Shown piece by piece: positions 1,137 to 27,967 of a stretch of 32,000 nt of DNA; within the stretch, counting starts at the first letter, position 1, and the number at the start of each line of letters is the position of its first letter. Where the stretch lies: IMG/VR virus record IMGVR_UViG_3300031576_000027, positions 46,962 to 78,961 of that record. One strand, given 5' to 3'. The notes beneath the pieces were generated by a model. It was given only the letters and a program-made list of their open reading frames with translations. It was not told the origin of the DNA and ran no database searches. The translations under genes were made by a program, and so were the position numbers. This stretch comes from a virus.

Positions 1137-1172
1137 AAGACGCAGCGTGCGCGCAACCATGTGGAGCAAGTT

Positions 1173-1294: not shown

Positions 1295-1303
1295 TTTCTC
1301 CCA

Positions 1304-5161: not shown

Positions 5162-5658
5162 GCGCGCTGTTCGATGACGTCGGCAAAGGCGCCGTGTTGG
5201 ACCCGACCGGCCGGTACCGGTTCCAGTTGTGGCGCCTGTGGGGCGCGGGGCAGCGCATCGGCTGGATCGGTTTGAACCCGAGCGTTGCGGATGCCAGCAA
5301 GGACGACCCAACCATCCGCCGCATGGTGCGTTTCGCGCGCGACTGGGGATACGACGGCATCACCGTCGTCAACCTGTTCCCGCTGCGGGCAACCGATCCG
5401 CGGCAGCTACAAGAGCACGCCCTGCCCGAGGACGTCCGCCGGGCCAACCTGGAGCACATCCTGGCAGCGGCGGCCCAGTGCCCCATGCTGATCGCAGCCT
5501 GGGGGGTGCGCGGCGGCCTGGACCAGACCGACACGGTCACGAGGATGCGACTGCGCGAAGCCGGGCGCGGGCTGTGGTGTCTGCGCAAGACCAAGGCCGG
5601 GCATCCAGAGCACCCGTTGTACGTGCCGGCCAACACCAAACCGCAGGTGTTCGCGTGA
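5158..5658 (+). CDS. DUF1643 family protein (UDG-superfamily-like fold by pattern)
   Basis: RYRFQLWRLWGAGQRIGWIGLNPSVADASKDDPTIRRMVRFARDWGYDGITVVNLFPLRATDP...AAWG...HPLY matches the DUF1643 signature. There are ATGA overlaps at both ends. Confidence 0.7.
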   Translation: MSALFDDVGKGAVLDPTGRYRFQLWRLWGAGQRIGWIGLNPSVADASKDDPTIRRMVRFARDWGYDGITVVNLFPLRATDPRQLQEHALPEDVRRANLEHILAAAAQCPMLIAAWGVRGGLDQTDTVTRMRLREAGRGLWCLRKTKAGHPEHPLYVPANTKPQVFA

Positions 5659-5660
5659 CC

Positions 5661-6455: not shown

Positions 6456-6685
6456 GCATGCCGATGGACCGACAGCGCCGCTACTACCTGCGGCACGACC
6501 TGGGCTGGGACATCCCGCACGAACGCGCGGTGTCGGGCGCGCGAGAACGCGCAGAACAGGACGAGGCGCGCAGGGTGGCCGGATCGTGCCTGTGCGGTTG
6601 CCCAAGGCTTGCGCATCCGCACGCGCGCGCATGCGGCATCTGCGGTGTCGGTCGCTGCCCAGCCTACATGGAGGCCGGCACGTGA
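6452..6685 (+). CDS. Small Cys/His-rich protein
   Basis: ATGA overlap at the start. The Cys/His stretch is CLCGCPRLAHPHARACGICGVGRCPAY. The stop shares a base with ATG 6685. Confidence 0.45.
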   Translation: MSMPMDRQRRYYLRHDLGWDIPHERAVSGARERAEQDEARRVAGSCLCGCPRLAHPHARACGICGVGRCPAYMEAGT

Positions 6686-7197
6686 TGTTCCGCGTCCTGA
6701 TCCCCGGCGATCCCGTCCCGCAGGGCCGCGGCCGGATCGTGCGCATCAAGGGCTTCGCGCGGATCGCGGACCCGTCCCGCAGTCGCAACTGGAAGGCGAT
6801 GGCGCAGTGGCACATGGCCAAGGCGATGTCGGACGCGCAGATCCGGGCGCCGCTGCAGGGCCCGCTGGAAGTCACGATCGAAGCCGTGCTGCGCTGCCCC
6901 AAGACCGACCACCGCAAGCGCGCACCACAGCCGCGGCGGTGGCACCAGGGGCGGCTCGACAGCGACAACCTGGCCAAGTCGGCTCTGGATGCCGGCAACG
7001 CCGTGCTGTGGATGGACGACGGCCAGGTGGCCGTGCTGCGTGTTCGCAAGATCATCGGACGCCAGGGCGAGGCGCCGCACCTGCTGATGCTGGTGCGCGA
7101 ACTGCCGGCCGTGCCGCACGACGAAGGTACGCCCAAGGAATGCAGCTGCAAGGAACGCCCGGGCGGATACTGCCCGGCACACGGGAGCCCACCCTGA
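6685..7197 (+). CDS. rusA: RusA-family Holliday junction resolvase (endodeoxyribonuclease RusA)
   Basis: IPGDPVPQGRGRIV...LEVTIEAVL...GRLDSDNLAKSALDAGNAVLWMDDGQVAVLRVRK shows the typical RusA motifs (PxxKxRPR-like, DxDN, DDxQ). The stop shares a base with ATG 7197. Confidence 0.8.
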   Translation: MFRVLIPGDPVPQGRGRIVRIKGFARIADPSRSRNWKAMAQWHMAKAMSDAQIRAPLQGPLEVTIEAVLRCPKTDHRKRAPQPRRWHQGRLDSDNLAKSALDAGNAVLWMDDGQVAVLRVRKIIGRQGEAPHLLMLVRELPAVPHDEGTPKECSCKERPGGYCPAHGSPP

Positions 7198-9518
7198 TGG
7201 CACAGACCGCACGCAAACGACAGCCCAAGGCAGCGCCACCACCGCCACCGGCATCGGTACCCACCGAGGTCATCGCGACGCAAGGCACGGAGGACCAGCC
7301 GCGCTGGACCGACTACATCCCGCTGTCGGGCCTGCGCCCGCACCCCAAGAACGAGGGCGTGCGCGATCACGACCTGGGCGTGATCCACGGGTCCATCGGG
7401 GAGCACGGCTACGGCAGTCCGATCGAGGTGGACGAACGGACGGGCCTGATGGTCGCCGGCCACGGCCGCCGCAAGGCGCTGCTGCAGATGCGCGACGCCA
7501 AACAGGACCCGCCGGACGGGGTGATCCGCGCGCCGGACGGCGACTGGATGGTGCCGGTTCAGCGCGGATGGCGCAGCCGGTCCGACGCCCAGGCCATGGC
7601 CTACCTCATTGTCAACAACCGCTCGCAGGAACTGGGCGGCTGGAAGGACGACGGGCTCGCGGAGGTGCTCCAGCAGTTGGCCCAGCAGGACGCCCTGATC
7701 GGAACGGGCTACAGCGCGGACGACGTCGCGGCGCTGCTGTCCCGCGTCGGCGGGCCGCCCAAGCTGGGCGCGCACGCCGGCAAGTTGCGCGAGAAGTTCC
7801 TGGTCCCCCCGTTCAGCGTCCTGGACGCCCGGCAGGGCTACTGGCGCGAGCGGCGGGAGGCCTGGATCAGCCTGGGCATCCAGTCCGAACTGGGCCGCGA
7901 CGCCAAGGCGTTCACGACGCAGGCGCAGATGGCCGACGGCAGCACCTTCTACGACTACACGGGCGTGTCCATCTTCGACCCGGTCCTGTGCGAACTGGTC
8001 TACCGGTGGTTCGCCCCGCCCGGCGCCGTCGTCCTGGATCCCTTCGCAGGCGGGTCGGTGCGCGGCGTCATCGCCGCGGCCTGCGGGCACCAGTACTGGG
8101 GCATCGACCTGCGGGCCGAGCAGGTCGCGGCCAACAAGGCCCAGTGGGGCAAAATCAAGCCCCTGGCCGCCGAGATCGCCCAGGCGCCGGTCGCCCAGGA
8201 TGCCACGGACAATGCCGTCCCGACTACGCCGATCGAGCGCCGCGGGCAAGTCTGGATCAAGCGCGACGACCTGTTCGCGATCGCCGGGGTCCGCGGCGGC
8301 AAGGTCCGCACGTGCTGGACGCTGGCCCAGGGCGCCAAGGGCCTGGTGACCGCCGGCAGTCGGCAGTCCCCCCAGGTCAACATCGTCGCCCACGTCGCCA
8401 AGCGCCTGGGCATCCCCTGCCGGGTCCATGTCCCAACCGGCAAGCCGACCCCGGAACTGCAGGCGGCGGCACAGGCCGGCGCCGACGTCGTGCCGCAGAC
8501 GCCAGGGCACAACAGCGTGATCATCAAGCGGGCCCGCGACGACGCCAAGGCGCGGGGCTGGCGCGAGATCCCGTTCGGGATGGAGTGCATCGAGGCCGTG
8601 GCGGCAACGTCCACCCAGGTGGCGGCGCTGCCAGACGGCTGCAAGCGGATCGTGGTGCCGGTCGGGTCCGGCATGACGCTGGCCGGGATCCTGACCGGCA
8701 TGCAGAAGGCCGGCGTCAGCCTGCCTGTGCTGGGGGTCGTCGTCGTGGCAGACCCGGCCGACCGCCTGGACAAGTGGGCCCCCAAGGGGTGGCGGCAGCG
8801 GGTCAAGTTGGTGCCGGCGGGCCAGGACTACCACGACCCGGCGCCGGTCACGGTCCTGGACGGGCTGCAGCTGGATCCCATCTACGAGTCCAAGTGCATC
8901 CCGCATCTCAAGCCGGACGATCTGCTGTGGTGCGTCGGCATCCGGCAGACGGCGGACGCGCGCGCAGCCGGGCAGGCACCGGTCCACGACCCCACCTGGA
9001 TCGTCGGGGCGTCCCCCGGCGCGGTTGGCGCCAAGGGGATCCCGGACGCCGACCTGGTCTTCACCTGCCCGCCCTACCACGACCTGGAACGGTACAGCGA
9101 CGACCCGGCGGACCTGTCCGCCATGTCCTGGGACGACTTCCGGGACTTCTACCGGGAGACGATCGTGGTGGCGGCCGCGCGCCTCAAGCCCAACCGCTTC
9201 ATGGCGATCGTCGTGGGCGAGATCCGCGACGGGCGCGGGCTGTACCGCAACCTGGTCGGCCTGACGATCGACGCGGCGATCGCGGCCGGGCTGGCCTACT
9301 ACAACGAGGCCATCCTGGTAACGCCGATCGGATCCCTGCCGCGGCGCATGGGACCGTTCAGCGCCTACCGGAAACTAGGGAAGACCCATCAGCAACTGCT
9401 GGTCTTCTACAAGGGCACCGACCCCAAGAAGCTGCAGCCGATCTTCGGGGACGTCGTGGTCCCGGAGGAGGCGTTGGTGCTGGCCGCGGTCGCCCAGGGG
9501 GACAAGGCAGATGGCTGA
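7197..9518 (+). CDS. ParB-like N-terminal domain + N6/N4 DNA methyltransferase, interrupted by an inserted PLP-dependent (ACC deaminase / D-cysteine desulfhydrase-like, fold type II) domain
   Basis: The ParB domain is LRPHPKNEG...GHGRRKA (about 7300-7560). MTase motif I is DPFAGGS (8037-8057). The PLP domain spans about 8218-8950: IERRGQVWIKRDDLF..RGGKVRT (Lys codon 8301-8303), VTAGSRQSPQ and VPVGSGMTLAG (8664-8678). MTase motif IV is TCPPY (9063-9077). The C-terminus is ...NEAILVT...RKLGKTHQQLLVFYKG. Confidence 0.8.
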   Translation: MAQTARKRQPKAAPPPPPASVPTEVIATQGTEDQPRWTDYIPLSGLRPHPKNEGVRDHDLGVIHGSIGEHGYGSPIEVDERTGLMVAGHGRRKALLQMRDAKQDPPDGVIRAPDGDWMVPVQRGWRSRSDAQAMAYLIVNNRSQELGGWKDDGLAEVLQQLAQQDALIGTGYSADDVAALLSRVGGPPKLGAHAGKLREKFLVPPFSVLDARQGYWRERREAWISLGIQSELGRDAKAFTTQAQMADGSTFYDYTGVSIFDPVLCELVYRWFAPPGAVVLDPFAGGSVRGVIAAACGHQYWGIDLRAEQVAANKAQWGKIKPLAAEIAQAPVAQDATDNAVPTTPIERRGQVWIKRDDLFAIAGVRGGKVRTCWTLAQGAKGLVTAGSRQSPQVNIVAHVAKRLGIPCRVHVPTGKPTPELQAAAQAGADVVPQTPGHNSVIIKRARDDAKARGWREIPFGMECIEAVAATSTQVAALPDGCKRIVVPVGSGMTLAGILTGMQKAGVSLPVLGVVVVADPADRLDKWAPKGWRQRVKLVPAGQDYHDPAPVTVLDGLQLDPIYESKCIPHLKPDDLLWCVGIRQTADARAAGQAPVHDPTWIVGASPGAVGAKGIPDADLVFTCPPYHDLERYSDDPADLSAMSWDDFRDFYRETIVVAAARLKPNRFMAIVVGEIRDGRGLYRNLVGLTIDAAIAAGLAYYNEAILVTPIGSLPRRMGPFSAYRKLGKTHQQLLVFYKGTDPKKLQPIFGDVVVPEEALVLAAVAQGDKADG

Positions 9519-9858
9519 CATCGTCGCGATCGTGGGCAGCCGGGACTTCCCGGACGCCGAGGCCAAGGTGACGGCCTACGTGCAGCACCTGCCGGACGGC
9601 ACCACCGTGGTGAGCGGCGGCGCATCCGGGCCTGACACCTACGCCGAGCGGGCCGCTAGGGCACGCGGCCTCCAGGTGATGATCTTCGCCGCGCAGTGGG
9701 ACAAGCACGGCCGGTCCGCCGGCTACATCCGCAACAAGCTGATCGTCGGTGCGGCGGATCGCGTCGTCGCCTTCTACAACGGGACCAGCAAGGGGACTGC
9801 GCTGACCATCGACCTGGCGCGCAAGGCCCGCAAGCCGGTGGAGGTCATCAGTCCATGA
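9511..9858 (+). CDS. DUF2493 / SLOG-superfamily (YspA/DprA-LOG-like) protein
   Basis: IVAIVGSRDFPD...VVSGGASGPDTYAERAARARGLQVMIFAAQWDKHGRSAGYIRNKLIVGAADRVVAFYNGTSKGT matches the DUF2493 pattern. The start overlaps the methyltransferase 3' end by 8 nt. Confidence 0.7.
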   Translation: MADIVAIVGSRDFPDAEAKVTAYVQHLPDGTTVVSGGASGPDTYAERAARARGLQVMIFAAQWDKHGRSAGYIRNKLIVGAADRVVAFYNGTSKGTALTIDLARKARKPVEVISP

Positions 9859-12395: not shown

Positions 12396-12758
12396 GTGAG
12401 TCCCGACTACGCCCAGGCCCGCTGTGCAGCCATCACCACGGCAGGCCGGCGCTGTACCGGTGGCTGGAGCACGTCCCTGCCGATCATGTTCCAGGCCATG
12501 CAGCCGCATGGGCACGCCAACGGGTACGTGATCGACGGGCCCAACCTGGTGCTGTGCCACCGGCACAGGCACTGGGTGGACGGGCTGCACCTGCTGCGGC
12601 GCTACCGTGTGGTGCACGGCTGGCTTGGTGCCGCAAACCAGCACGGCTACGGACACACCGTCTATCAGAGCCGCGCGGGCGGCAAGGCCGCCAGCTGGTG
12701 GTGGCAGCGCAGCCAGAAGCGCAAGTGGGGCGAACCCAGCAGGAGAGACGCGGCGTGA
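12396..12758 (+). CDS. Hypothetical His/Cys-containing protein
   Basis: GTG 12396 follows ggtggaggggg. The stop overlaps the next GTG (12755). Confidence 0.45.
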   Translation: MSPDYAQARCAAITTAGRRCTGGWSTSLPIMFQAMQPHGHANGYVIDGPNLVLCHRHRHWVDGLHLLRRYRVVHGWLGAANQHGYGHTVYQSRAGGKAASWWWQRSQKRKWGEPSRRDAA

Positions 12759-12994
12759 CCAAGCATGATGACCGACAGGCGCTGCTGGCCGAGAACAGTA
12801 TGCTGCGGGGCCTGCTGGAGGAGGCGCTGTCAGCGTCGATCCACAACCCGGCGTGCGCCTATCTGCACCATGACGTGGACCCGCAGGACGTCGGCAAGTG
12901 CAGCTGTTGGCGCGGCAAGGCGGCCAAGTTGTTCGGCAAGCCGACCCCGCCGGCCACCGGGGTGCGGCCGCCGATGATCAAGGCTGGCAAGTGA
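12755..12994 (+). CDS. Hypothetical protein
   Basis: RBS aggagagacgcggcGTG, with GTGA overlaps at both ends. Confidence 0.5.
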   Translation: MTKHDDRQALLAENSMLRGLLEEALSASIHNPACAYLHHDVDPQDVGKCSCWRGKAAKLFGKPTPPATGVRPPMIKAGK

Positions 12995-13416
12995 CACGGG
13001 ACCAGGCCATGGCCATGACAGCGCGTGCCGTGGGGGGGGCGTTCATGCCGGACCAGGCCGCCGACATCATGGACGCGATCGCGCAGCAGTCAGGGACGCC
13101 AACGGCTGTACCAAGCCTTGGTGGTCAGATCAGCTGGCTGGCGCTGGGCAACTATCGACAGCGGTACAACGTCAATCGGCCGCCACACGGAACAATCTGG
13201 TTGCTGTTCGACAGCCCTGGCGGCGTGGCCTACATCCACACCCAGGACACCGACGGCGATAGCCGGTGGCCACTTCCGCGACACCAGGCCATGGCGATCC
13301 ACCTACCCTACGGGTGCACGTCCATCGAATGCACGGGTCAGGGAGTGGGGCACGGCGATTACCTGGTGATCTGGCACGGCAAGCCGGCGAGGAGGGCCGA
13401 CGATGGCGAGGCGTGA
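12991..13416 (+). CDS. Hypothetical protein
   Basis: GTGA overlap at the start; high GC3. The next ATG (13403) has the RBS gaggagg inside this gene's 3' end. Confidence 0.5.
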   Translation: MTRDQAMAMTARAVGGAFMPDQAADIMDAIAQQSGTPTAVPSLGGQISWLALGNYRQRYNVNRPPHGTIWLLFDSPGGVAYIHTQDTDGDSRWPLPRHQAMAIHLPYGCTSIECTGQGVGHGDYLVIWHGKPARRADDGEA

Positions 13417-13633
13417 CCACCTGCGACTGGTCCAGGACAGCGACGCGGCGATCGCGGCCGGACTGCGCGCGCTGGGCCGCGCCATCGAGATGGAGACGCA
13501 CTACCAGACGGACGCGCGGGCGGCATGGCTGCGCAAGCCACGGCCCTGGTGGCTGCAGATGATCGAGCGCGCCTGCTGGTGGCGCCGGCACCCGCGGGCC
13601 AACTTCTACTGCTGGGATGATCAACCGTGGTGA
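13403..13633 (+). CDS. Hypothetical Trp-rich protein
   Basis: RBS gaggagggccgacgATG. The stop overlaps the next GTG start region. Confidence 0.5.
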   Translation: MARRDHLRLVQDSDAAIAAGLRALGRAIEMETHYQTDARAAWLRKPRPWWLQMIERACWWRRHPRANFYCWDDQPW

Positions 13634-13959
13634 CCCAGCAACTGCCCATGCGAACGCGGGTAGACAGCGTCCTGGCCGTCCTGGCCATGGGCGGCCGCCA
13701 GGTGCCGACCGTGTACGTGCATCGGGTCCTGTGCCCGGTCTGCAGGGTGCGGAGAAAAGGCGTGACGGAAGCGCGGCCCCTCATGATGGTCACGATGGCC
13801 GCCGTGCGCGTGACCAAGGTGCGGCGCGGCCGGCATGTGCGTGTCCACTACTACGGCCCCGTGCCCAAGCATCTGCGGAAGGGTGGCAAGGGCCCGTGTC
13901 CGACGTCGGGCCTTGCGCACCGCTGGCACGCCGACTACCCGTGGGGACGGACGTGGTGA
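13627..13959 (+). CDS. Zinc-ribbon paralog family member 1
   Basis: The three family elements are SVLAVLAMGGRQVP, LCPVC and VRVHYYGPVPKH (see findings). Confidence 0.5.
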   Translation: MVTQQLPMRTRVDSVLAVLAMGGRQVPTVYVHRVLCPVCRVRRKGVTEARPLMMVTMAAVRVTKVRRGRHVRVHYYGPVPKHLRKGGKGPCPTSGLAHRWHADYPWGRTW

Positions 13960-14204
13960 GGCCGATCTTCACGGCATGGCTCTGCGGCCGGCACACGGCC
14001 TACAAGCTGCGCCTGGGCGACAGGCGCCGCACTTGGTCCGTGCTGTCGGCGCTGCAACCCAAGGATTGGGGAGCCTACGCGCCGGATCAGGACCAGGTCG
14101 CCTGGGCGGCCATGTCCGCGTTGGGCGCCACCGATCTGCCGGCGCACACCGGCACGGCAGACTGCCCCTGCGGCTACGCCTGCAGGGAGGACGGGACCGC
14201 ATGA
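13953..14204 (+). CDS. Hypothetical protein (possible divergent relative of the paralog family)
   Basis: GTG 13953/13956 overlaps the upstream stop. The C-terminus is AAMSALGATDLPAHTGTADCPCGYAC. Confidence 0.4.
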   Translation: MVRPIFTAWLCGRHTAYKLRLGDRRRTWSVLSALQPKDWGAYAPDQDQVAWAAMSALGATDLPAHTGTADCPCGYACREDGTA

Positions 14205-14491
14205 ACCGCGAGGCCCTGGCCGTGTTCCTGTCGATGACCGGCATGCCCATGACGCTGGGACACCGGATGTTCACGTGCAAGCACTGTGGGAGCAGCCAGT
14301 TTGCTTTCCCGCAGGCCATGGACATGGACGGCACCGACGTCATCTACGTGGCCCGGATCGGGCCGCACACGAAGATCCAGCATGACCGGACGTCTACGAA
14401 TTATCCAGACATCACGTCGTGGAACCACTGCGGCGGCTGCGAGATCGACGTGCGCTGGCCAATCACTGACAAGTGGCCGGGCGAGACATGA
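14201..14491 (+). CDS. Zinc-ribbon paralog family member 2
   Basis: ATGA overlap at the start. The family elements are EALAVFLSMTGMPM, TCKHC, VIYVARIGPH and HCGGC. Confidence 0.55.
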   Translation: MNREALAVFLSMTGMPMTLGHRMFTCKHCGSSQFAFPQAMDMDGTDVIYVARIGPHTKIQHDRTSTNYPDITSWNHCGGCEIDVRWPITDKWPGET

Positions 14492-14796
14492 CCGACGACG
14501 TGGCCGCCGCGCTGGTTCATCTTGCGATGCTGGGCGTGGACATCCCCCGCACGACGATGACGCCCTGGAAGAAGTGCCAGGTCTGCAACGAGGGCTTCCC
14601 GGGGCCGCCGTGGGTCCGGTCGCGCATGGAAATCGTGGGGGTCTATCTGCGGGTCCGGTACGTCAGCATCGTGCCGCAACACCCACGCGCGCCCGGGCCC
14701 GTCTGCCCAGGCGGGCTGGCGATGACATGGTCGATCGTGGACTACAACTGGCAGCAGGGAGGACAGGTCACGTGGGAAGACAACGCCAAGCCGTAG
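14488..14796 (+). CDS. Zinc-ribbon paralog family member 3
   Basis: ATGA overlap at the start. The family elements are AAALVHLAMLGVDIP, KCQVC and LRVRYVSIVPQH. Confidence 0.55.
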   Translation: MTDDVAAALVHLAMLGVDIPRTTMTPWKKCQVCNEGFPGPPWVRSRMEIVGVYLRVRYVSIVPQHPRAPGPVCPGGLAMTWSIVDYNWQQGGQVTWEDNAKP

Positions 14797-15596
14797 CTGC
14801 AGCCCCGGTGGCCGATCTGGCTGCCCGCGCGGCGTTGTTCGCGCTGGCCCATCCGGCCTACGCATCGCGCGGCGCCGGGCTGTCCCACATCCAGACCACC
14901 CAGGGCGGGTGCCTGTACGGCATGTGGGTCATGGGCAACGACTACCGCAACCGATCCCGGCTGTACGGAGCCTATCCACCCGGCTACCTGCGGCGCGTCT
15001 TCGCCTTGTTCCCTGACAAGCAGCGCATCCTGCACGTGTTCAGCGGCAGCCTGACCCGGACGCAGCTGGACGAGGACTGGCTGGCGGTCAACGGTGGACC
15101 CGGGCGCCTGGAGGACGACGTGGCGGGGCAGCGATCGCGCGTGTGGGATCTGCCGGCCCAGGTGCGCTTCGACAGTGGCGCCTGCAAGGACGCCATGGCT
15201 GCCGGCCCGGATGTCATCGGCAACGCCCAGCAGCTGGCCGCCGTCCTGGCCGGCCAGAACAAGAACAAGCGCACCTGGAGGGGTGAGACGTGGCAGGGGC
15301 CGTGGATCGAAGAACCGCCGAGCCCTCCGGTGGCCTCCGGTTACGACCTGGTGCTGGCCGATCCGCCCTACACCAAGGACGACGCCAAACGGTACGGGCA
15401 ACCGCTGCCCAACAAGCGACTGGTCATCGACCAGATCCACCAGGTGACGGCGACGGGCGCGCATCTGGTGTGGCTCGACACGGCTTGGCCGATGCACAGC
15501 AAGTCGCAGTGGCGGACCTGCGGGCTGATCGGGATGGTCCGATCCACCCAGCACCGGGTCCGATTGGTGACGATCATGGAGAGGGTGGGCGCATGA
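14772..15596 (+). CDS. DNA methyltransferase (amino-MTase, motif I then DPPY)
   Basis: GTG 14772 follows gggagga. The sequence reads GMWVMGNDYRNRSRLYGAYPPGYLRRVFALFPDKQRILHVFSGS...YDLVLADPPYTKDDAKRY...HLVWLD. Confidence 0.75.
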   Translation: MGRQRQAVAAAPVADLAARAALFALAHPAYASRGAGLSHIQTTQGGCLYGMWVMGNDYRNRSRLYGAYPPGYLRRVFALFPDKQRILHVFSGSLTRTQLDEDWLAVNGGPGRLEDDVAGQRSRVWDLPAQVRFDSGACKDAMAAGPDVIGNAQQLAAVLAGQNKNKRTWRGETWQGPWIEEPPSPPVASGYDLVLADPPYTKDDAKRYGQPLPNKRLVIDQIHQVTATGAHLVWLDTAWPMHSKSQWRTCGLIGMVRSTQHRVRLVTIMERVGA

Positions 15597-15841
15597 AGAT
15601 CCACGACCTGAAATGCTGGCCGGCGCCGTGGCAGGCAACCGAGCGCGACTGGAAGACCCACGAGGTCCGCCAGGACGACCGTGGTTTCGAGGAGGGCCAC
15701 GTGCTGCTGCTGCGCGAATGGGATCCGGGGTCCAAAGCCTACACGGGCCGGCAGCTGATGCGGCGCGTCCAGTACGTCAGCCGGGGGCCCGACTGGGGGC
15801 TGCCGCACGACATGGTGGTCATGTCGCTGGGGGCCGTATGA
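15593..15841 (+). CDS. DUF3850 (ASCH/PUA-like fold) protein
   Basis: MKIHDLKCWPAPWQATERDWKTHEVRQDDRGFEEGHVLLLREWDPGSKAYTGRQL matches the DUF3850 signature. There are ATGA overlaps at both ends. Confidence 0.75.
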   Translation: MKIHDLKCWPAPWQATERDWKTHEVRQDDRGFEEGHVLLLREWDPGSKAYTGRQLMRRVQYVSRGPDWGLPHDMVVMSLGAV

Positions 15842-16026
15842 CCAAAAAACGGGCCAAGCAGATCAAGCGGCGCCCGGCCCGCCCGCAGCGCACGCAATGG
15901 GACATGGACCACGCCGACGCGATCGCGGCCTTCGATCATTGCCCATGCTGGTACGATGGGAAGGTCTGCTGCGGATGCGGCGAGGAGAAGCCCTTGTGCC
16001 AGTGGACGGTAGGTCGCCATGGCTGA
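15838..16026 (+). CDS. Small Cys-rich protein
   Basis: ATGA overlap at the start. The Cys-rich stretch is CPCWYDGKVCCGCGEEKPLC. Confidence 0.45.
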   Translation: MTKKRAKQIKRRPARPQRTQWDMDHADAIAAFDHCPCWYDGKVCCGCGEEKPLCQWTVGRHG

Positions 16027-20214: not shown

Positions 20215-20447
20215 TCGAGACGTGGACCGTGTGGCCGCGGATCATGTGGCTGACAGCCCCCATCATGTTCATGCCATGGGTCATCCGCGTCGTTCCATGG
20301 TTGTGGCCGCTGCAGGTCGCAATACCGATCCTCGTGCTCGCGTTGGCAGCGGCGACCAGTTGGCGGATCCGCCGCGAGCTACGCGCGATCCAGGCCATGC
20401 ACGCGCTACGAGGATCGGGACGCAGCGGGAACCGAATCCCGCCGTGA
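20181..20447 (+). CDS. Small membrane protein (two TM helices)
   Basis: RBS aggaggcccgATG. The hydrophobic segments are IMWLTAPIMFMPWVIRVVPWLW and VAIPILVLALAAATSW. Confidence 0.55.
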   Translation: MHRLRATVERLIETWTVWPRIMWLTAPIMFMPWVIRVVPWLWPLQVAIPILVLALAAATSWRIRRELRAIQAMHALRGSGRSGNRIPP

Positions 20448-20629
20448 CCGACGACGACAAGATCGAGGACGCAGCCAAGGTGCTGCACGACATGCAGGCC
20501 GACGGGCGGCGTTGCTGCTTCTGCGGCAAGCCAAAGCGCGAGGTCAAGCGCCTGGTGACCAACGGGGCCCACACGATCTGCAACGAATGCATCGGGCTGT
20601 GCGTGCTGCTACTACAGCAGGCCGAGTAG
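20444..20629 (+). CDS. Stand-alone ClpX-type C4 zinc-finger (ZBD-like) protein
   Basis: CCFCGKPKREVKRLVTNGAHTICNECIGLCVLLL aligns with the ClpX N-terminus C-x-FCGK-x3-EV-x-KL-x7-IC-x-EC-x2-LC. GTGA overlap at the start. Confidence 0.7.
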   Translation: MTDDDKIEDAAKVLHDMQADGRRCCFCGKPKREVKRLVTNGAHTICNECIGLCVLLLQQAE

Positions 20630-20638: not shown

Positions 20639-22120
20639 ATGCCAGGACCCGTGGAGCCCAACGACCAGCGCGGCGCAATCGTCGCGGAGACATCGGACGG
20701 CGACGTCCAGGTCTACGGGCCCGATGGTGAGCAGATCGAAGCCGAGACGCCGGAAGCAGCCAGGGTCATCGGCGGGCTGTCCGGCCGGCGCATCATCCTG
20801 CCGGCACCACTGCCGCACCAGGTCCCGGTGCTGCTGCATCCTGCCCGCAACAAGGTGCTGACAGCTGGACGCCGCTGGGGAAAGACCCTGACCGGCCTCA
20901 TCTGCGTGATCGAGGGACACGGCGCGCACCGCGGGCAGCACATCGGCGCGCTGCAGGGTGGCAACATCTGGTGGGTCACCACCACCCACGGCGTGGCCAA
21001 GGCCATCTGGCGCGACCTCAAGGCGGCCCTGCGCGAGGGATGGGTCAGCAAGTCAGAAGTGGACAAGCGGATCGTCCTGCCCGGCGGCGGCGCGATCACG
21101 GTCAAATCGGCCGACAACCCGGACAGTCTGCGCGGCGAGGGTCTGGACGGCGTGGTCATAGACGAGGCCGCGCACTGCAGCCGGGACGCCTGGGAACAGG
21201 GTGTGCGCCCTGCGCTGGTGGACCGCCAGGGCTGGGCGTTCTTCATCAGCAGCCCCAAGGGTCGCAACTGGTTCTGGCAGCTGTACGAGCAGGCTGGGCG
21301 CCTGCCCAACTGGGCGCGCTGGCAGCGGCCGTCCGCGGACAACCCGACCTTTCCGCAGTCCGAGGTGGACAAGGCGCAGCAGGAATCCCCGCCCAAAATC
21401 TTCCGCCAGGAGTACCTGGCCCAGTTCGAAGCGCCCGGCGGCGCCTTGTGCCAGCAGTCCTGGTTCCAGTACTTCACCATCGAGAACCCGGCCGGCGCGG
21501 CCAAGACCACCCAGCAGGCGCGGGACGTCGTCAAGGCGTTGGGCGCCAACCAGGGTGAGCCCGAGGCGTTGGGCGTAACCTTCGTCTGCGTCAAGACGGA
21601 CGGCAGCATCAAGCGAATCCCGCGCAACACCTGCCGCGTCTTCCAGACCGTTGACCTGGCAGCCAGCGTCAAGGCATCCGCGGACTACACCGTGGTAAGC
21701 ACCTGGGCTGCGACCCCCGACCTGGACCTGCTGCTGCTGGACCGCGTGCGTGGGCGTTTCGAGGGGCCAGACCAACCGGCGCTGATCACGGGCGCCTGGG
21801 CCAAGTGGTCGCCTGCCATGATCGCGATCGAACAAGTCGGGTACCAGTTGGCGCTGATCCAGGCCATGGTCCGACAGGGGCTGCCAATCATGGCGGTGCG
21901 CCCCGACGCCGACAAGGTCAGCCGGTTCATCCCGTTCTGCACCCGCATGAAGGCCGGCGCCGTCTACTGGCCCGCCGGCATGCCATGGCTGCACGACTGG
22001 GAGGACGAACTGGTGTCGTTCCCGGACGGCGAGCACGACGACCAGGTGGACACCGCCAGCCTGTCCGTCTGCCGCGAAGTGCTGGGCGCTGCGCGCAAGT
22101 TCACAGTCCGCCGCAGTTGA
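20639..22120 (+). CDS. terL: Terminase large subunit
   Basis: Walker A-like LTAGRRWGKT and Walker B-like LDGVVIDEAAH are present. The C-terminal nuclease-like region is VDLAAS...DYTV...VGYQLALIQ...DGEHDDQVDT. The gene sits immediately upstream of the portal. Confidence 0.9.
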   Translation: MPGPVEPNDQRGAIVAETSDGDVQVYGPDGEQIEAETPEAARVIGGLSGRRIILPAPLPHQVPVLLHPARNKVLTAGRRWGKTLTGLICVIEGHGAHRGQHIGALQGGNIWWVTTTHGVAKAIWRDLKAALREGWVSKSEVDKRIVLPGGGAITVKSADNPDSLRGEGLDGVVIDEAAHCSRDAWEQGVRPALVDRQGWAFFISSPKGRNWFWQLYEQAGRLPNWARWQRPSADNPTFPQSEVDKAQQESPPKIFRQEYLAQFEAPGGALCQQSWFQYFTIENPAGAAKTTQQARDVVKALGANQGEPEALGVTFVCVKTDGSIKRIPRNTCRVFQTVDLAASVKASADYTVVSTWAATPDLDLLLLDRVRGRFEGPDQPALITGAWAKWSPAMIAIEQVGYQLALIQAMVRQGLPIMAVRPDADKVSRFIPFCTRMKAGAVYWPAGMPWLHDWEDELVSFPDGEHDDQVDTASLSVCREVLGAARKFTVRRS

Positions 22121-22135: not shown

Positions 22136-24334
22136 ATGGGCGTGCTGGACAACCTGCGGTCGCTGTTCGGTGGTGGGGCATCAAACGGCGCAGGTGCGCG
22201 GCCCGTGGGCGCGACGGAGCGGACGTACGAAGGGCTGCGCAGTCGGATCAGCAAGTCGGCCGGCGACGCACAGCCGGCGTCGCGTCAGCTGCCGGACGAG
22301 TTCGCGACCCTCTACGCGGCGGGCATGGCCATCGAGCCGCCGTACGACCCGGAGCGGCTGCTGGTAGCTGCGGAGACAAACGAGGTCCACAGCGCCTGCC
22401 TGTTGGCCAAGGCGACGGACAGCGTTGGGCGCGGCTGGGAGTTCACGTCCGACGACGAGCAGGCAGCAGCCGAACCAAAGGACGCCGTGGTCGCGGCGCT
22501 GGAGGACATCTGCCCGGACTACACCTTCCAGGAACTGCTGCTGCAGGCGGCCTGGGAACTGGTGACGATCGGGTACTCCGGGTGGGAGGTAGTGCGCAAC
22601 CAGGACAAGACGATCGGCGCGGCCTACCCGATCCCGGCCCACACCCTGCGCGCCACGCGGTCCCCGGACATCTTCGTCCAGGTGCGCAACGCACAGGTCC
22701 GGTACTTCAAGCGGTTTGGAGTCGAGCGCACGCTGGACGCGATCACTGGCGAGTGGTTGTCGGATCAGGCCGCCGCGGCACTGACGCAGGACGCCCTGGA
22801 CCAGCCGCAGGGCAGCGTGTTCGGGATGCCGTCCGGTCTGGCCAGGCAGCCCGATCATGCCCCCGCCAGCGAGTTGATCACCTTCCGCCGCTACAGCCCG
22901 CGGTCCACGTTCTACGGGATGCTGGACTACATCGCCGGCATGCCGACCCTGGCCGAGTACGCGGCCAATCGGGACTACAACATCAGCTTCTACGAAACGG
23001 CCGGCGTCATGTCCAAGTTGGTCTTCCTGTCGTCGGACGTGCCCATCCCTGAGGTGGTCAACGAGATCGACAAGACCCTCAAGGACGCGCGCGGACGGCA
23101 GCACACCAACATGGTCGCGGAGCTTCCGGGCACGGCAAAGGTCCAGGTGGAGGATCTGGCGGTCGCCCCGCGCGAGCAGGGCTTCAAGGAGCGCCGGTTG
23201 GCGCTGGTCAAGTCCATCATGGTGGCCCACAGCGTCCCGCCCTACCGGATCGGCTACGCCGAACTGGGATCGCTGGGCGGATCCGCGGCGTCCGAGATGA
23301 TGAAGGCGTACCGGCACGGCGTGGTGGAGCCGATCCAGACGACGATCGAGCACCGCCTGGGCAAGACGCTGTTCGGTCCCGCCGGCTACAACCTGCAGGG
23401 CTGGGCCTTCACGCTGGCCGACCTGGACTGGGAGGAGACGGAACTGTCCCTCAAGATCGCGACCGAGTCCGTCAAGCTGGCGATCCTGTCCCCCAACGAG
23501 GCGCGGGCGGAACTGGGCCGCGACCCGGACGACGACCCCAACATGGACCGGAAGTACATGAACGGCCAGCCCATCGACACGGGCCTGGGCGCGCGGTCCG
23601 CGGAGGAGGTCGTGCGCACGCTGCGCGGGGAGGTCGCGCGCGCCATCCAGTCCGGCAAGCCCAAGCCACAGCAGCCGCAGCCGCTGCCGGTGGACACGGA
23701 GGTCCAGGTGCCGGCGGCCGCCAAGGCGCAGGCCAAGACCAACGGCAAGGCGCCGCTCAAGCTGCCGGCCAAGGTCGCCAAGGACGATCGGCCGCTAAAC
23801 CCGCAGGTCCCGACGTTCGGGCAGCCCGGCGCGAAGGTCGTCCTGGTCGGCCTGTGCCCGGGGAGTCAGGACGTCGATGCCGGCAGTCCGATGTCGGGCT
23901 ACGAACTGGACACCCTGGTGCACCGCTATCTGGACCCGCTGGGCCTGGGGCTGAACGAGGAGGACGTGGCGATCGTCATGGCCGTGCCTGAGATCACCCG
24001 GGACATCGTGGGCGAGCCGTGCAACCCGACCGACGCCGACCTGAACCGCTGGCAGCCGTGGCTGCACGGCGAGATCCGGCGCCTGGGCCCCGGCCTGGTC
24101 GTGGCGCTGGGTGACCTGCCGCGGCGGGCGCTGGGTGAACTGGGGCACGCCACCGTGATCCCGCCCGCACAGGCCCACGCCAAGCCGGAACTGGCCGATA
24201 CCCTCACGCGCCAGCTGGACGAAGTCCGCGGGATGCTGACTGAGCGCAAGGCGCGCGAGATGCTGGGGCACGGCCCACTCGGGAAGCGGGTCCGCGTGCT
24301 GGCCAACGGCAATGACGTGGACTCGCAGCACTAA
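22136..24334 (+). CDS. Portal protein fused to a C-terminal uracil-DNA-glycosylase-superfamily-like domain
   Basis: The portal core spans about 22136-23560 (YFKRFG..., FYGMLDYIAGMPTLAEYAANRDYNISFYETAG, VPPYRIGY...). A Pro/Gln/Lys/Ala-rich linker spans about 23560-23800. The UDG-like part spans about 23801-24334: VVLVGLCPGSQDVDAGSPMSGYELDTL...CNPTDADLNRWQPWLHGEIRRLGPGLVVALGDL. Confidence 0.8.
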   Translation: MGVLDNLRSLFGGGASNGAGARPVGATERTYEGLRSRISKSAGDAQPASRQLPDEFATLYAAGMAIEPPYDPERLLVAAETNEVHSACLLAKATDSVGRGWEFTSDDEQAAAEPKDAVVAALEDICPDYTFQELLLQAAWELVTIGYSGWEVVRNQDKTIGAAYPIPAHTLRATRSPDIFVQVRNAQVRYFKRFGVERTLDAITGEWLSDQAAAALTQDALDQPQGSVFGMPSGLARQPDHAPASELITFRRYSPRSTFYGMLDYIAGMPTLAEYAANRDYNISFYETAGVMSKLVFLSSDVPIPEVVNEIDKTLKDARGRQHTNMVAELPGTAKVQVEDLAVAPREQGFKERRLALVKSIMVAHSVPPYRIGYAELGSLGGSAASEMMKAYRHGVVEPIQTTIEHRLGKTLFGPAGYNLQGWAFTLADLDWEETELSLKIATESVKLAILSPNEARAELGRDPDDDPNMDRKYMNGQPIDTGLGARSAEEVVRTLRGEVARAIQSGKPKPQQPQPLPVDTEVQVPAAAKAQAKTNGKAPLKLPAKVAKDDRPLNPQVPTFGQPGAKVVLVGLCPGSQDVDAGSPMSGYELDTLVHRYLDPLGLGLNEEDVAIVMAVPEITRDIVGEPCNPTDADLNRWQPWLHGEIRRLGPGLVVALGDLPRRALGELGHATVIPPAQAHAKPELADTLTRQLDEVRGMLTERKAREMLGHGPLGKRVRVLANGNDVDSQH

Positions 24335-24341: not shown

Positions 24342-25211
24342 ATGCCGCGTCGGGAACCAGCGGGCTACTGGGCGCAGTCGGGGGAGCACAGGGCCCTGTG
24401 GGCTCTGCACGCCAGCGTGGCCAAGTCGGCCGTGGCGCGCCAGCTGCGACCCACCCGGACCTGGCAGCAACGGCTGCTGTCCGCCTACCGCGACCCCTTC
24501 AAGCGGGTGGACTGGGCGGCCTGGGCCCGGCGCAATCTGCACCAGGTCGAGAAGCGCGCGCCGCTGCCTGCGGCCTGGGACCGGTCCAGTGGGGGGCGCG
24601 TGGTTGGCGCCCTTGGTGGTGACAGCTACGTCATCCGCAAGGCCCTGGACTCGGACGACATCGAACTGGATCTGCCGGACGCCCTGTCCTGGCGGGCCAT
24701 CCAGGAGCTTGTCCGGCAGCTGCAGCGCCAGGCTGGCAAGGCGGGCTTCGACGCAGCCGCGGGTGACATCGACGTGCGCCTGCGCTTCGACCCCGACGTC
24801 TTCGACGCGGCCATCCGGTCCACGTTCGGGGACATCGCCGGCATCAACAGCAACGCGCGCGACGCCCTGCAGGGTCTGATGCGGGACGTCATGCAGCGCG
24901 CGGACACCTTCGAAGAGTTCGCGCGGGTCCTGCGGGACGAGTGGGAGGGGATGTCATCCTTTCGGTCCAACATGATTGCGGTGACCGAGTGGAACCGCGC
25001 GGCGTCCACGGCAACGCAGTTGGCGTACGAGCAGGCGGGGATCACCGGCAAAATCTGGATCACGGTGGGGGACGACGACGTGGACGACATCTGCGCGGCC
25101 AATGAAGCGGAGGGCCCCATCCCGATCGGTGAGACGTTTACGTCGGGTGACATGCACCCCCCAGCCCATCCGCTGTGTCGGTGCAACGTGTCCGCGTCGG
25201 TGGCGCCTTGA
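24342..25211 (+). CDS. Head morphogenesis protein (SPP1 gp7 / Mu F family)
   Basis: The RBS aagggga precedes ATG 24342. The sequence reads RSNMIAVTEWNRAASTATQLAYEQAGITGKIWITVGDDDVDDICAANEAEGPIPIGETF...PPAHPLCRC. Confidence 0.85.
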   Translation: MPRREPAGYWAQSGEHRALWALHASVAKSAVARQLRPTRTWQQRLLSAYRDPFKRVDWAAWARRNLHQVEKRAPLPAAWDRSSGGRVVGALGGDSYVIRKALDSDDIELDLPDALSWRAIQELVRQLQRQAGKAGFDAAAGDIDVRLRFDPDVFDAAIRSTFGDIAGINSNARDALQGLMRDVMQRADTFEEFARVLRDEWEGMSSFRSNMIAVTEWNRAASTATQLAYEQAGITGKIWITVGDDDVDDICAANEAEGPIPIGETFTSGDMHPPAHPLCRCNVSASVAP

Positions 25212-26199: not shown

Positions 26200-26577
26200 T
26201 TAGGACGTGGTCGCCTCCTTGACCAGCGGCAGCGCGCCGATGATCGACCGTAGCCGGCCGCCGTGCATGTCCCTGGTAGGGGCGATGCCGACGGCCATGA
26301 TCTGCCCGCACCAGGGCGGGTCGGGCTCGCAGATGGCGCGGTACGGGATGTCGGCCGCGCGCAACTGCTGCGCGATCGCGCGCAGGTTGGCGTCGTCTTG
26401 CGCGTGCAGACAGACGGCGTACGTCCCGCGCGGCAGATCACCGGGGGAAGATTCGCCCGCGGCGTGCACGATGTTGGCGGCCTGCAGTCCCCAGGGGAGG
26501 TCGCGGCGGACGATCACGTAGTGCCGCAGGGGCTGCGCTTCGACGGTTGCGTCAGGCGTCGCAATGCATGCCTGCAT
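26200..26577 (-). CDS. PTH2-superfamily (peptidyl-tRNA hydrolase 2-like) protein
   Basis: YVIVRRDLPWGLQAANIVHAA...AVCLHAQDDANLRAIAQQLRAADIPYRAICEPD...IMAVGIAP parallels PTH2 (VVR-x-DL...AAQ-x2-HAA...V-x-V...L-x3-A...G....DAG-x-T...T-x-L-x-IGP). Confidence 0.55.
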   Translation of the reverse strand: MQACIATPDATVEAQPLRHYVIVRRDLPWGLQAANIVHAAGESSPGDLPRGTYAVCLHAQDDANLRAIAQQLRAADIPYRAICEPDPPWCGQIMAVGIAPTRDMHGGRLRSIIGALPLVKEATTS

Positions 26578-26588
26578 GTTATGCAGGT

Positions 26589-26604
26589 CGGGCTAGCCCG
26601 TCAA
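26589..26604 (-). promoter_or_regulatory. 12-bp perfect palindrome overlapping a TTGACG -35-like hexamer, upstream of the PTH2-like gene
   Basis: cgggctagcccg lies at 26589-26600. The minus-strand TTGACG lies at 26604-26599. A second palindrome, cctgcatgttatgcagg (26571-26587), spans the ATG. Confidence 0.3.
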
Positions 26605-26740
26605 GGCGCGGCGTCTTGCACCGGCATCCCGTGTGAGGCATCCTGTCGCCTGGACGGGGGCGGCACTAGCGGCGCACTCGGGCTACCTCCCAACCTGCAA
26701 CCGCTGTACAGCATCGAGATCGAACTGGCCGCGCCCTAGG

Positions 26741-27142
26741 TCATCCGGTGTGCCCGGCACGGCAAGGCTCCCCGCCGCACAGGTCGCACGACGGCTTGGG
26801 CGGCGGGAACCGCTGGGCAGCGAAGGCGGCCAGCCCGTCGTCCAGGCGGCAATCGTAGCTGCGGCAGATTTTGGGCCGCCGGTCGTAGATCGTGCACGCG
26901 CCCCCGGGGCCCAGGAAGACGCACGCCTGGGTCACGGGGTGGCGCGCCAGGATCAGCACGGCCTCCTGCCGACCATCGGGCAGCGTCATGGTCCAGGTGT
27001 TCACCGGCAGCGGCGGATCGCCCGGTTGGATCAGCACCAGGCGGTCGGCGCTGGTGCAGCACGGTGCGCTGCAGCCCTGGCAGTTGACCTGGGCATCGCG
27101 GCCAATGTCTGGCAGCACCAGCAGGTGCGGGCGCTTGGGCAT
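26741..27142 (-). CDS. YkgJ-family (CxxCxxCC) cysteine-cluster protein (alternative GTG start at 27268)
   Basis: The sequence reads NCQGCSAPCC...ACVFLGPGGACTIYDRRPKICRSYDC. The ATG at 27142 is preferred because the upstream 42 codons look non-protein-like. Confidence 0.6.
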   Translation of the reverse strand: MPKRPHLLVLPDIGRDAQVNCQGCSAPCCTSADRLVLIQPGDPPLPVNTWTMTLPDGRQEAVLILARHPVTQACVFLGPGGACTIYDRRPKICRSYDCRLDDGLAAFAAQRFPPPKPSCDLCGGEPCRAGHTG

Positions 27143-27269
27143 GGACGCGGGGATCAGACGCGGGGTTCCGTCCGTCACGGTCGTGGCGCCCCGCAGGACA
27201 GGCAGACGAAAACGAAGTGGCCACCGCGCGCCACGCGCAAGACCCAGGCATGCCGGTCCAGCAGGCACT

Positions 27270-27455
27270 TCACTTGTGCTGCCCCAGGATCGCCTCGATG
27301 GCCTCGCGCACCACGCTGACCATCGACACGCCGCGCGCAGCTGCCAGCGCCTTGAGCCGCTCGTACTGGTCCGGCCGCAGGTGCAACGTCACGGGTGCCA
27401 TGCGCGGGCGACCGCTGCCGACCGGCAGGCCATCAACACGGAGGGGGCGCGGCAC
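27270..27455 (-). CDS. Ribbon-helix-helix (CopG/antitoxin-like) protein (alternative ATG start at 27401)
   Basis: APVTLHLRPDQYERLKALAAARGVSMVSVVREAIEAIL is a typical RHH. GTG 27455 directly abuts the upstream TAG. Confidence 0.6.
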   Translation of the reverse strand: MPRPLRVDGLPVGSGRPRMAPVTLHLRPDQYERLKALAAARGVSMVSVVREAIEAILGQHK

Positions 27456-27731
27456 CTACGCCACCGGCTCGTATGTGGCGGCAAAGATCGGACCGGCGCA
27501 CGGGTACAACTCGCCCGCGATCCCGCGGATGATCCAGTCCCCTGGCCGTCCCATCATCGTCCCCTCGGCCGTGCGGATGGACACGTGGTCCCGCGCGAAG
27601 ACGATCAGCCCGGCGTCGTAGGCCGCGCGCAGCCACTGCGGCAGGCCGGTCCAGTTGTTGGCTGCGGCCTGCAGTGCAGCAACGACCTCGACGGCTTCCA
27701 CCACGACCGGCTTCTTGCGGAACTGTCCCAT
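27456..27731 (-). CDS. Conserved phage hypothetical protein (FRKKPVVVEA...PGDWII...YPC family)
   Basis: The start is the ATG at 27731. MGQFRKKPVVVEAVEV...GRPGDWIIRGIAGELYPCAGPIFAATYEPV resembles a widespread small phage protein family. Confidence 0.55.
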   Translation of the reverse strand: MGQFRKKPVVVEAVEVVAALQAAANNWTGLPQWLRAAYDAGLIVFARDHVSIRTAEGTMMGRPGDWIIRGIAGELYPCAGPIFAATYEPVA

Positions 27732-27745
27732 GCGGTGATCGTAGG

Positions 27746-27967
27746 TCAGAACAGGTTGCCCTGGGAATCGACCAGGCCGCGGTAGCCGCACAGCCGGCAT
27801 TCGCCGCGCGGGATGTCCGGGTAGTGGATGGAGTCCACGGGCGTGGGCTCGTCCAAGTCCACGCTGTGCCACCCAGGCCAGCGGCAAAGCCACAGACGGA
27901 TGCGCAGCCAGATCGAGGGTCCTTGCATGACGCGCACGGTAGCCGATTGTCGGGCGAGAGTCGCCAT
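27746..27967 (-). CDS. Hypothetical small protein with a C-terminal CxxC
   Basis: The ATG at 27967 lies only 14 bp from the divergent ATG at 27982. The sequence contains HYPDIPRGECRLCGYRGLVDSQGNLF. Confidence 0.45.
   Translation of the reverse strand: MATLARQSATVRVMQGPSIWLRIRLWLCRWPGWHSVDLDEPTPVDSIHYPDIPRGECRLCGYRGLVDSQGNLF

Follow-up and report, generated by a model that had tools for sequence, protein, structure and literature searches.

A uracil-DNA glycosylase fold at the C-terminus of a phage portal protein and its relatives on prohead proteases

The window considered here is a 32,000-nucleotide stretch of viral DNA (positions 46,962 to 78,961 of IMG/VR record IMGVR_UViG_3300031576_000027), and it encodes a phage portal protein that continues, in the same open reading frame (ORF), into a domain of the uracil-DNA glycosylase (UDG) superfamily. 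The relatives of this domain are found mainly in prohead proteases, where they appear as one cargo module among several. The portal-borne copy differs from them at the residues on which uracil excision depends in a characterized enzyme. On balance, we consider that it probably serves as a non-catalytic passenger or structural module in the capsid interior.

A portal protein that continues into a UDG-superfamily domain

A preliminary description of this DNA had reported a portal ORF with a C-terminal extension, and this is what the window contains: a single plus-strand ORF of 732 aa (22136..24334). Pfam, the continuous reading frame, an AlphaFold 2 (AF2) model, and Foldseek agree on the fusion of a portal and a UDG-superfamily domain in this one ORF. 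Judged by its sequence, the core is a canonical portal. Pfam PF04860 Phage_portal (PBSX/HK97-type) matches aa 109-461 (E 3.2e-17; 63.2 bits vs a cut-off of 39.1), and a PHROGs search of the fusion protein returned portal families only (phrog_12 portal, E 1e-25). The portal-core profile matches the solved portals 8q7d and T5 pb7; a profile is needed here, as phmmer with the single portal-core sequence found no match among PDB sequences. Moreover, the gene is located between the large terminase gene and the MuF and protease genes, the order expected of a portal.

BLASTP against the closest portals shows homology ending at about aa 497-505, and portal P0002 (463 aa, 51% identity) ends soon after the same point. 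Because the portal homology extends this far, the linker between the two parts is about 50 aa long and not about 80 aa as first estimated. It reads SGKPKPQQPQPLPVDTEVQVPAAAKAQAKTNGKAPLKLPAKVAKDDRPLN, is rich in Lys, Pro, Ala, and Gln, and has a pI of 10. The UDG-fold domain that follows comprises 157 aa with a pI of 5.0 and a net charge of -8. Among 38 homologs of the portal part in an index of 5.8 billion proteins, none carries a UDG domain. Other C-terminal additions do occur on portal homologs, a MuF domain in P0024 and an S78 protease in P0018. In addition, the portal relative P0007 bears a LAGLIDADG domain.

Could the fusion be an artefact, in which a chimeric assembly or a missed frameshift welded a portal gene to a piece of a separate gene? 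The sequence is known from a metagenomic contig alone, and frameshifts are present in 4 of the 16 related IMG/VR protease genes (see below), both of which lend this explanation some weight. Against it, the G+C content at third codon positions (GC3) stays at 0.86-0.98 in one frame across portal core, linker, and C-terminal domain, with zero in-frame stops, and the two alternative frames are broken by stops. Codon usage of the linker and UDG part correlates with that of the genes for the large terminase (TerL), MuF, the protease, and the major capsid protein (MCP) at r = 0.74-0.85, as opposed to 0.17-0.27 for its own off-frames. No repeats of 14 bases or more were found at the portal/UDG junction, and the gap to the downstream gene is tidy, the TAA stop of the fusion gene being followed by GGGGA and then by the ATG of the MuF gene. 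The same protein is called in ENA ERZ27247320 (a MEGAHIT contig of 78,981 bp) and in a Logan SRR8536157 contig. The DNA of these assemblies, produced by different assemblers, is identical across 16.5 kb, although the two probably share one read set. Collectively, these data make a frameshift or chimera very improbable.

The assignment of the fold draws on both profiles and structure. Pfam PF03167 UDG covers aa 559-670 (35.0 bits vs a gathering cut-off of 24.3, E 1.9e-8) and scores 39.2 bits (E 9e-10) on the C-terminal 182 aa alone. The AF2 model of the domain built from a 33-sequence alignment of relatives reaches a predicted local distance difference test score (pLDDT) of 96.1 and a predicted TM-score (pTM) of 0.90, compared with a pLDDT of 44 for a single-sequence AlphaFold model. 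In Foldseek searches of the PDB with the AF2 model, the top 35 entries are UdgX and family-4 UDGs (E 1e-9 to 1e-6, TM-score on the query (TMq) 0.72-0.78, probability 1.0), followed by SMUG1, MUG, and TDG, and the top 50 contain zero family-5 entries. In BFVD, the matches are UDGs of phages and the UDG domains that phage family-A polymerases carry. The UDG-fold similarity that had been proposed thus stands in both kinds of search, with Pfam above its cut-off and Foldseek TM-scores of about 0.75 to UdgX and family 4, and the modeled domain has the alpha/beta fold of the UDG superfamily with its four-stranded parallel sheet.

The family to which the domain belongs is a separate question, in which its relatives (the "clade", described in the next section) are informative. 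Family 5 UDGs have GLAPG as motif A, and the GLCPG of the window copy had been read as a family-5 sign. The motif lies exactly where it had been reported (23849-23863; G572-G576), and the three strings originally singled out (VVLVGLCPGSQDVDAGSPMSGYELDTL, CNPTDADL, and WLHGEIRRLGPGLVVALGDL) are all present in the ORF. The label "family-5-like", however, does not survive comparison. The clade profile matches family 4 4zbx at E 2.5e-20, UdgX at about 1e-15, and 1ui0 at 4.8e-14 among PDB sequences vs 3.3e-5 for family 5 2d3y, while the single window sequence gives E 0.0049 for 1ui0 and 0.017 for 2d3y; as noted above, all of the leading structural matches are UdgX or family 4. Motif A of the clade is GASP, so GLCPG would be a lineage-specific substitution that resembles GLAPG, a resemblance that is most simply read as convergent. 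The CNPTDADL segment, which had been taken for the NP-containing motif, aligns with the family-4 R-x-P-T-x-x-E and not with the catalytic Asn, the position of which is occupied by M615 in VMAVP.

The suspected absence of Fe-S cysteines is borne out: the domain has just Cys574 and Cys629, and no Cys column is conserved across the clade. An Fe-S cluster is typical of UDG families 4 and 5 and of UdgX (PMC4787834). The NCBIfam models for family 4 score 25.9 bits vs a cut-off of 125.3 (TIGR00758) and 28.8 vs 250 (NF040953), and the UdgX model TIGR03914 scores 28.1 bits vs 189.95. The domain is derived from the family-4/UdgX branch, belongs to neither family, and is not family 5.

Relatives of the domain on prohead proteases

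When 1.84 billion representatives were scanned exhaustively with HMMER, the 182-aa C-terminus serving as query, 141 relatives (P0040-P0180) emerged that are 27-42% identical to the window domain (best E 9e-20, P0040). The window domain scores 154 bits against the clade hidden Markov model (HMM), which includes the query itself, and on sequence grounds it is a divergent member of the clade. Peptidase_S78_2, the XkdF-type prohead protease, is present in 97 of the 141 relatives (68 of the 75 closest and 29 of the other 66), and the UDG domain lies upstream of the XkdF/S78 protease in the same protein. Additional partner modules are an ATP-dependent DNA ligase (17 relatives), a 2H/LigT phosphoesterase (12, one matching Acb1), and S-adenosylmethionine (SAM) methyltransferase, GNAT, metallo-β-lactamase (MBL), NUDIX, and D12 methylase modules; the resulting protease polyproteins reach 1,769 aa. 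The typical clade domain has GASP as motif A, retains both Asn and His, and is without an Fe-S cluster. At the weak end of the 141 matches are UDGs that stand alone or are linked to a polymerase.

A portal or MuF domain is found in none of the 141 relatives, and the seven proteins among the top 75 that are without a protease, when scanned singly, have neither. In IMG/VR, the clade domain occurs at 19 loci, 16 of them in a gene that ends in S78 and three cut by contig ends; none is on a portal. The portal fusion in the window is therefore the only one seen among the 1.84 billion representatives and the 19 IMG/VR loci. The genome contexts of P0042, P0041, and P0040 read TerL, portal, MuF, the UDG-S78 protein with its cargo, a scaffold-like gene, decoration, and MCP; the UDG-bearing protease thus occupies the canonical slot between MuF and scaffold/MCP. 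Since the protease fusion prevails and the genome contexts agree with it, the clade is best described as a cargo module of the head-maturation protease.

Searches elsewhere delimit the distribution of the clade. With the window domain, tblastn against 50,697 phage records gave no match, and neither did megablast with the 6-kb region. A word-indexed protein search found no match for the domain alone and, with the clade profile, standalone family-4/UdgX proteins only. A consensus-like clade domain, compared by tblastn with cultured phages, matched only polymerase-linked or standalone UDGs (27-38% identity). The protease-linked clade hence seems to be absent from cultured-phage records. Searches of IMG/VR and of JGI metagenomes yielded no close relative of the fusion. 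In the searchable literature, neither portal-UDG nor protease-UDG fusions turned up, and the GLAPG motif did not either.

Two side observations concern these UDG-protease genes and their phages. A frameshift splits 4 of the 16 complete IMG/VR UDG-S78 genes (L010, L016, L017, and L023), twice between UDG and S78 and twice inside the UDG domain; these frameshifts could be sequencing errors, pseudogenes, or programmed frameshifts. In one UDG-protease phage (L007, JGI 3300010391, 957-7912), the terminase, portal, and MuF genes each carry intein or LAGLIDADG signatures.

The phage in the window has a prohead protease of its own. It consists of a 2H/LigT phosphoesterase, a middle region of about 250 residues without an assigned domain, and S78, and it has no UDG domain. 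With its 2H/LigT module, this protease is a cargo fusion in its own right; a role in degrading nucleotide immune signals has been proposed for 2H domains that occur on head proteins (PMC5512222). Both of its ends are homologous to the LigT-UDG-S78 proteases P0042, P0041, P0051, P0060, and P0076, and proteases of the LigT type rank high among the relatives of the domain (ranks 2-42 of 141; Mann-Whitney p = 1.5e-4). With the clade HMM, a six-frame search of the window revealed neither another copy of the UDG module nor a remnant of it. These data fit a module that relatives house in the protease and that this phage has on its portal. A move within this genome, from its own protease to its portal, is supported indirectly by the ranking of the LigT-type proteases and is not proven: the phages with the closest UDG domains have portals of a different family (Portal_Mu), and the phages with the closest portals have UDG-free proteases. 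An example of the latter is L004 (JGI 3300033145), which has the closest portal (51% identity) and a 1,047-aa protease (12718-15861) with a methyltransferase and a DNA ligase but no UDG. Sets of protease cargo are thus shuffled among related phages.

The active site and possible roles of the portal-borne copy

The clade consensus, FVGASP[GS] ... PF.G ... TN.VP ... VVALG ... LPHP.A ... GEV.RKLK, matches the family-4 motifs FVGEAPG, PFVG, and ITNVV position by position in the alignment. At position 573 in motif A, the window has Leu; the clade has mostly Ala (79) or Glu (26), and Leu is outside its six commonest residues. Position 586, that of the base-stacking Phe, is Met in the window, compared with 76 Phe, 46 Leu, and 10 Met in the clade. 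The uracil-recognizing Asn at position 615 (Asn 89, His 17, Tyr 11 in the clade) is replaced by Met, which is outside the seven commonest residues. At position 676, the motif-B His is replaced by Pro. Of the 141 relatives, 129 have this His, as do 98% of the 99 closest; those 12 that deviate are weak matches low in the list. The combination of Leu573, Met586, Met615, and Pro676 was seen in none of the 141 relatives when the columns were compared.

The departures extend beyond these four positions. Among the 29 columns conserved at 80% or more in the 99 closest relatives, the window copy departs at eight, compared with a clade mean of 3.1 (standard deviation 2.6). The conserved residues lost are His676 (98%), Gly591, Pro675, Glu689, and Lys693 (now Gln), and the basic residues (Arg/Lys) that follow motif B in the clade at positions 681 and 682 are His681 and Ala682. 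Mean identity to the clade is 30.5% for the window copy vs 40.2% for other members, its branch is a long one, and a net charge as acidic as that of the window domain is found in only 7% of the clade. The remaining 21 of the 29 columns match, including the structural Gly, Pro, and Trp residues and ALG.

The family-4-like enzyme DR0022 loses its activity with any one of the substitutions E44A, N90A, and H159A; O2 of uracil is contacted by the His, and N3 and O4 are hydrogen-bonded by the Asn (PMC9796141). The equivalents of the three substituted residues in the window copy are Leu573, Met615, and Pro676. Canonical uracil excision is unexpected because the equivalents of an Asn and a His that are essential in DR0022 have been replaced, and the uracil proofreading suggested at the outset loses its footing on the same grounds. 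From these comparisons, the window copy most probably cannot excise uracil, and it probably does not bind DNA in the canonical way. The last-listed of the early proposals, an inactive module, becomes the favored reading.

Solved portal structures show the C-terminal crown directed towards the inside of the capsid. Because the relatives of the domain are nearly all protease cargo, the question shifts from a glycosylase at the channel to a capsid cargo that has moved to the portal. Clade proteins, with their cargo and prohead protease, would be built into the interior of the procapsid, and in the lineage of the window the cargo module would have moved to another anchor point in the same compartment, the portal C-terminus. 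Held on flexible basic linkers of about 50 aa, twelve copies would then surround the crown within the capsid lumen, at the site of DNA entry and exit, and they would be unable to leave the capsid unless the linker was cut. In this position, the acidic, substituted domain may persist as a non-catalytic passenger, as a structural or binding module, or as a relic. A non-catalytic passenger or structural module is the explanation we lean towards, with somewhat better than even confidence.

Several points weigh against it. The domain keeps its structural core residues and shows no decay, and its AF2 model is confident; this fits a function that has been kept and that may be enzymatic with another substrate. 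Family 2 (MUG) enzymes function without the motif-B His. Since it derives from the clade alignment, the high pLDDT is no proof that the window sequence itself folds. Furthermore, the location in the capsid interior and the intact linker are deduced rather than observed, and there is one sequence from one sample with no relative above 42% identity, so selection on the domain is not measurable.

If the linker was cut, the domain could instead act as a released effector: the protease would free the UDG-fold domain during maturation, and the domain would remain in the head until its ejection with the DNA into the next host, much as the internal proteins of T4 are ejected, to act early there, for instance by binding DNA of the host or the phage or some host factor. 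The company that the clade keeps is in line with this scenario, as its members reside in polyproteins that end in a maturation protease, beside modules of the injected, counter-defence type (2H/Acb1-like, MBL, methyltransferase, and ligase). The long, low-complexity linker would be open to a protease, the phage encodes an S78 protease, and Iyer et al. infer that domains fused to portal or MuF are injected (PMC5512222). Nonetheless, there is no definable cleavage motif, the active-site residues are gone, and a folded domain of 17 kDa could not traverse the channel without unfolding. We rate a released effector as possible but considerably less probable than a passenger or structural module. The string "VLQK", which recurs upstream of the domain and was considered as a cleavage motif, was rejected since it is the end of the ligase module and occurs only in ligase-bearing proteins.

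The intact core bears on another alternative, in which the domain is an active glycosylase or base-flipping reader of new specificity, its hydrophobic pocket (Leu, Met, Met, Pro) taking some other, possibly phage-modified base and the domain inspecting or processing DNA at the crown during packaging; this was the main idea of the preliminary description. Not only the fold core but also the G-x-x-P-G backbone of motif A is preserved, and the substitutions are coherent and do not look like random decay. Family 5 enzymes are active without a polar motif-A residue (PMC4787834). Elsewhere in the window, a methylase-like domain fused to a pyridoxal phosphate (PLP) enzyme and a DUF1643 protein hint at unusual DNA chemistry. 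These considerations have to be set against the loss of both Asn and His, each essential in a family-4-like enzyme, and against a residue combination found in no relative; the loss of basic residues after motif B (H681, A682, and K693Q), together with the net charge of -8, speaks against DNA binding. An active enzyme or reader of this kind is unlikely in our estimate. A more specific version, in which a repurposed reader in twelve crown copies recognizes a modified base or a DNA end during packaging or release, and so couples modification to headful packaging or genome retention, is a little less likely again. Such a role would be new among the accessory functions of portals.

In Foldseek, the domain is matched best by structures of UdgX, and a site beside the channel would suit a protein that holds a genome end. 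Both observations could point to a UdgX-like anchor that binds DNA covalently or tightly at the portal; the preliminary description had considered an anchor for the genome end. UdgX has GEQPG as motif A, and its cross-linking needs the His of the KRRIH loop (PMC4787834). In the window copy, the KRRIH-type loop His is absent, motif A is not GEQPG, the TIGR03914 score of 28 bits compares with a cut-off of 190, and the domain is acidic. Without the His loop the covalent anchor finds little to stand on, and we regard it as very improbable. A passenger or structural module in the capsid interior accordingly remains our preferred explanation.

By fusing accessory domains to portal, MuF, or protease, tailed phages bring proteins into the capsid that are to act early in the next host. 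Effector domains on these three proteins are known, whereas the UDG fold as cargo was not found in the searchable literature; the present data add a DNA-glycosylase fold to the repertoire. The S78-linked UDG clade comprises at least 97 clusters at 50% identity, for which no description was found in that literature, and it often stands beside an ATP-dependent DNA ligase or Acb1-like 2H modules. If its enzymes are active, they would amount to a base-excision and ligation kit injected with the genome, with implications for counter-defence and for what becomes of incoming DNA. As protease cargo, the UDG fold and the DNA ligase would then make up a class of DNA-repair or counter-defence enzymes that is delivered in the capsid and has not been described. 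Arguably, it is the clade, more than the degenerate copy in the window, that deserves attention. The portal copy can be seen as a natural experiment on the transfer of a cargo module from one anchor point in the capsid interior to another and on the later fate of its active site. For annotation, the domain should be labeled neither "uracil-DNA glycosylase" nor "family 5 UDG".

Surrounding genes and comparison with known systems

The coordinates of the fusion gene, its parts, and the neighboring genes discussed in the text are given in Table 1.

Table 1. Features of the portal-UDG fusion gene and of other genes in the window
Feature	Position	Strand	Basis
Large terminase	20639..22120	+	Pfam Terminase_6N/6C
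Portal-UDG fusion gene, 732 aa + stop	22136..24334	+	ORF, Pfam Phage_portal + UDG, continuous GC3, two identical assemblies
Portal core, aa 1-505	22136..23650	+	Pfam PF04860, phrog_12, 51% identity to portal P0002 up to aa 497
Linker, aa 506-555	23651..23800	+	Composition; without homology to portals or UDG clade
UDG-superfamily fold domain, aa 556-712	23801..24271	+	Pfam UDG, AF2, Foldseek, clade HMM 154 bits
Motif A, G572-L-C-P-G576 (family 4 GE[AG]PG; clade GASP[GS])	23849..23863	+	Alignment to 1ui0, 4zbx
Met586, base-stacking Phe position of "PF.G"	23891..23893	+	Alignment to 1ui0 PFVG
Met615, uracil-recognizing Asn position ("TN.VP")	23978..23980	+	Aligned with Asn of 1ui0 ITNIVK
Pro676, motif-B His position ("LPHP.A")	24161..24163	+	Clade column counts
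C-terminal tail, aa 713-732, + TAA stop	24272..24334	+	Lies outside clade alignment
MuF-like minor head protein	24342..25211	+	Pfam Phage_Mu_F
Prohead protease, 536 aa	27982..29592	+	Pfam 2H/LigT aa 24-145, Peptidase_S78_2 aa 413-526
DUF1643 protein, 166 aa	5158-5658	+	GLNPS motif, recalls UDG motif A

Within the head module, a protein of 61 aa that has a C4 zinc finger of the ClpX type (20444-20629, +) is encoded directly upstream of the large terminase, in the slot expected for the small terminase. Between MuF and the protease lie about five small minus-strand genes (26200-27967), including those for an RHH_1 protein and a CxxCxxCC protein. In a head module that is otherwise on the plus strand, this block looks like a moron or a regulatory or toxin-antitoxin cassette.

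The genes that had suggested a base-modification theme are present, namely that for DUF1643 and a methylase-like gene. A relation of DUF1643 to UDGs, proposed from its motif, is not demonstrable (hhalign probability of 1.8% against the clade; no NCBIfam match). The methylase-like gene (7197-9518, +) encodes 773 aa, with an N6/N4 DNA-methylase-like domain and a fold-type-II PLP enzyme, the best NCBIfam matches of the PLP part being D-cysteine desulfhydrase, ACC deaminase, and threonine dehydratase. It adjoins RusA (6685-7197) and a YAcAr/DprA-like gene (9511-9858), and its product could be an enzyme of DNA base hypermodification.

Among known systems, the nearest in architecture are the portal fusions to PBECR RNase, 2H phosphoesterase, and InPase described by Iyer et al. 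in 2017 and read as virion-packaged and injected (PMC5512222). The fusion in the window follows the same polyvalent-protein theme, with an accessory domain on a head-morphogenesis protein of a terminase-portal phage, and the domain is hence expected in the virion. It differs from that cargo in that the UDG fold was not described there ("UDG" and "glycosylase" have zero occurrences in PMC5512222) and in that the window copy looks catalytically degenerate. With the S78-protease UDG clade, the domain shares up to 42% identity, the same domain boundaries, the lack of Fe-S cysteines, and a long C-terminal helix; unlike the clade, it is on a portal, has lost the His and Asn, and is unusually acidic.

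With respect to the characterized UDG families, family 4 (Thermus thermophilus 1UI0 and Sulfolobus tokodaii 4ZBX) has the same motif order (A, PF.G, TN.V, LG, HP) and gives the best sequence-profile and fold match. In contrast to family 4, the domain has no 4Fe-4S cysteines, has GLCPG in place of GE[AG]PG, lacks Asn and His, is about 45 residues shorter, and stays far below the NCBIfam cut-offs. UdgX (Mycobacterium smegmatis, 6AIL) is the top Foldseek match and has a loop of similar length between the Asn strand and the next helix, but in the window copy this loop reads EITRDIVGEPCNPT, with no equivalent of His109, and GEQPG and the Fe-S ligands are also missing. The likeness to family 5 (T. 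thermophilus 2D3Y/2DP6), most simply seen as convergent, lies in the non-polar Leu after the first Gly of motif A, whereas the profile match is much weaker than to family 4 and neither the Fe-S cluster nor the motif-B His is present.

Two further systems offer an analogy for the position of the domain. The internal proteins of T4, which use a cleavable targeting peptide, are delivered via the prohead core and protease and are then ejected, and the C-terminal barrel of the P22 portal is a coiled coil with a role in DNA organization. Neither has a UDG fold, and the T4 cargo is not fused to the portal. What the portal-borne domain would have in common with both is its place in the capsid interior, beside the packaged DNA.

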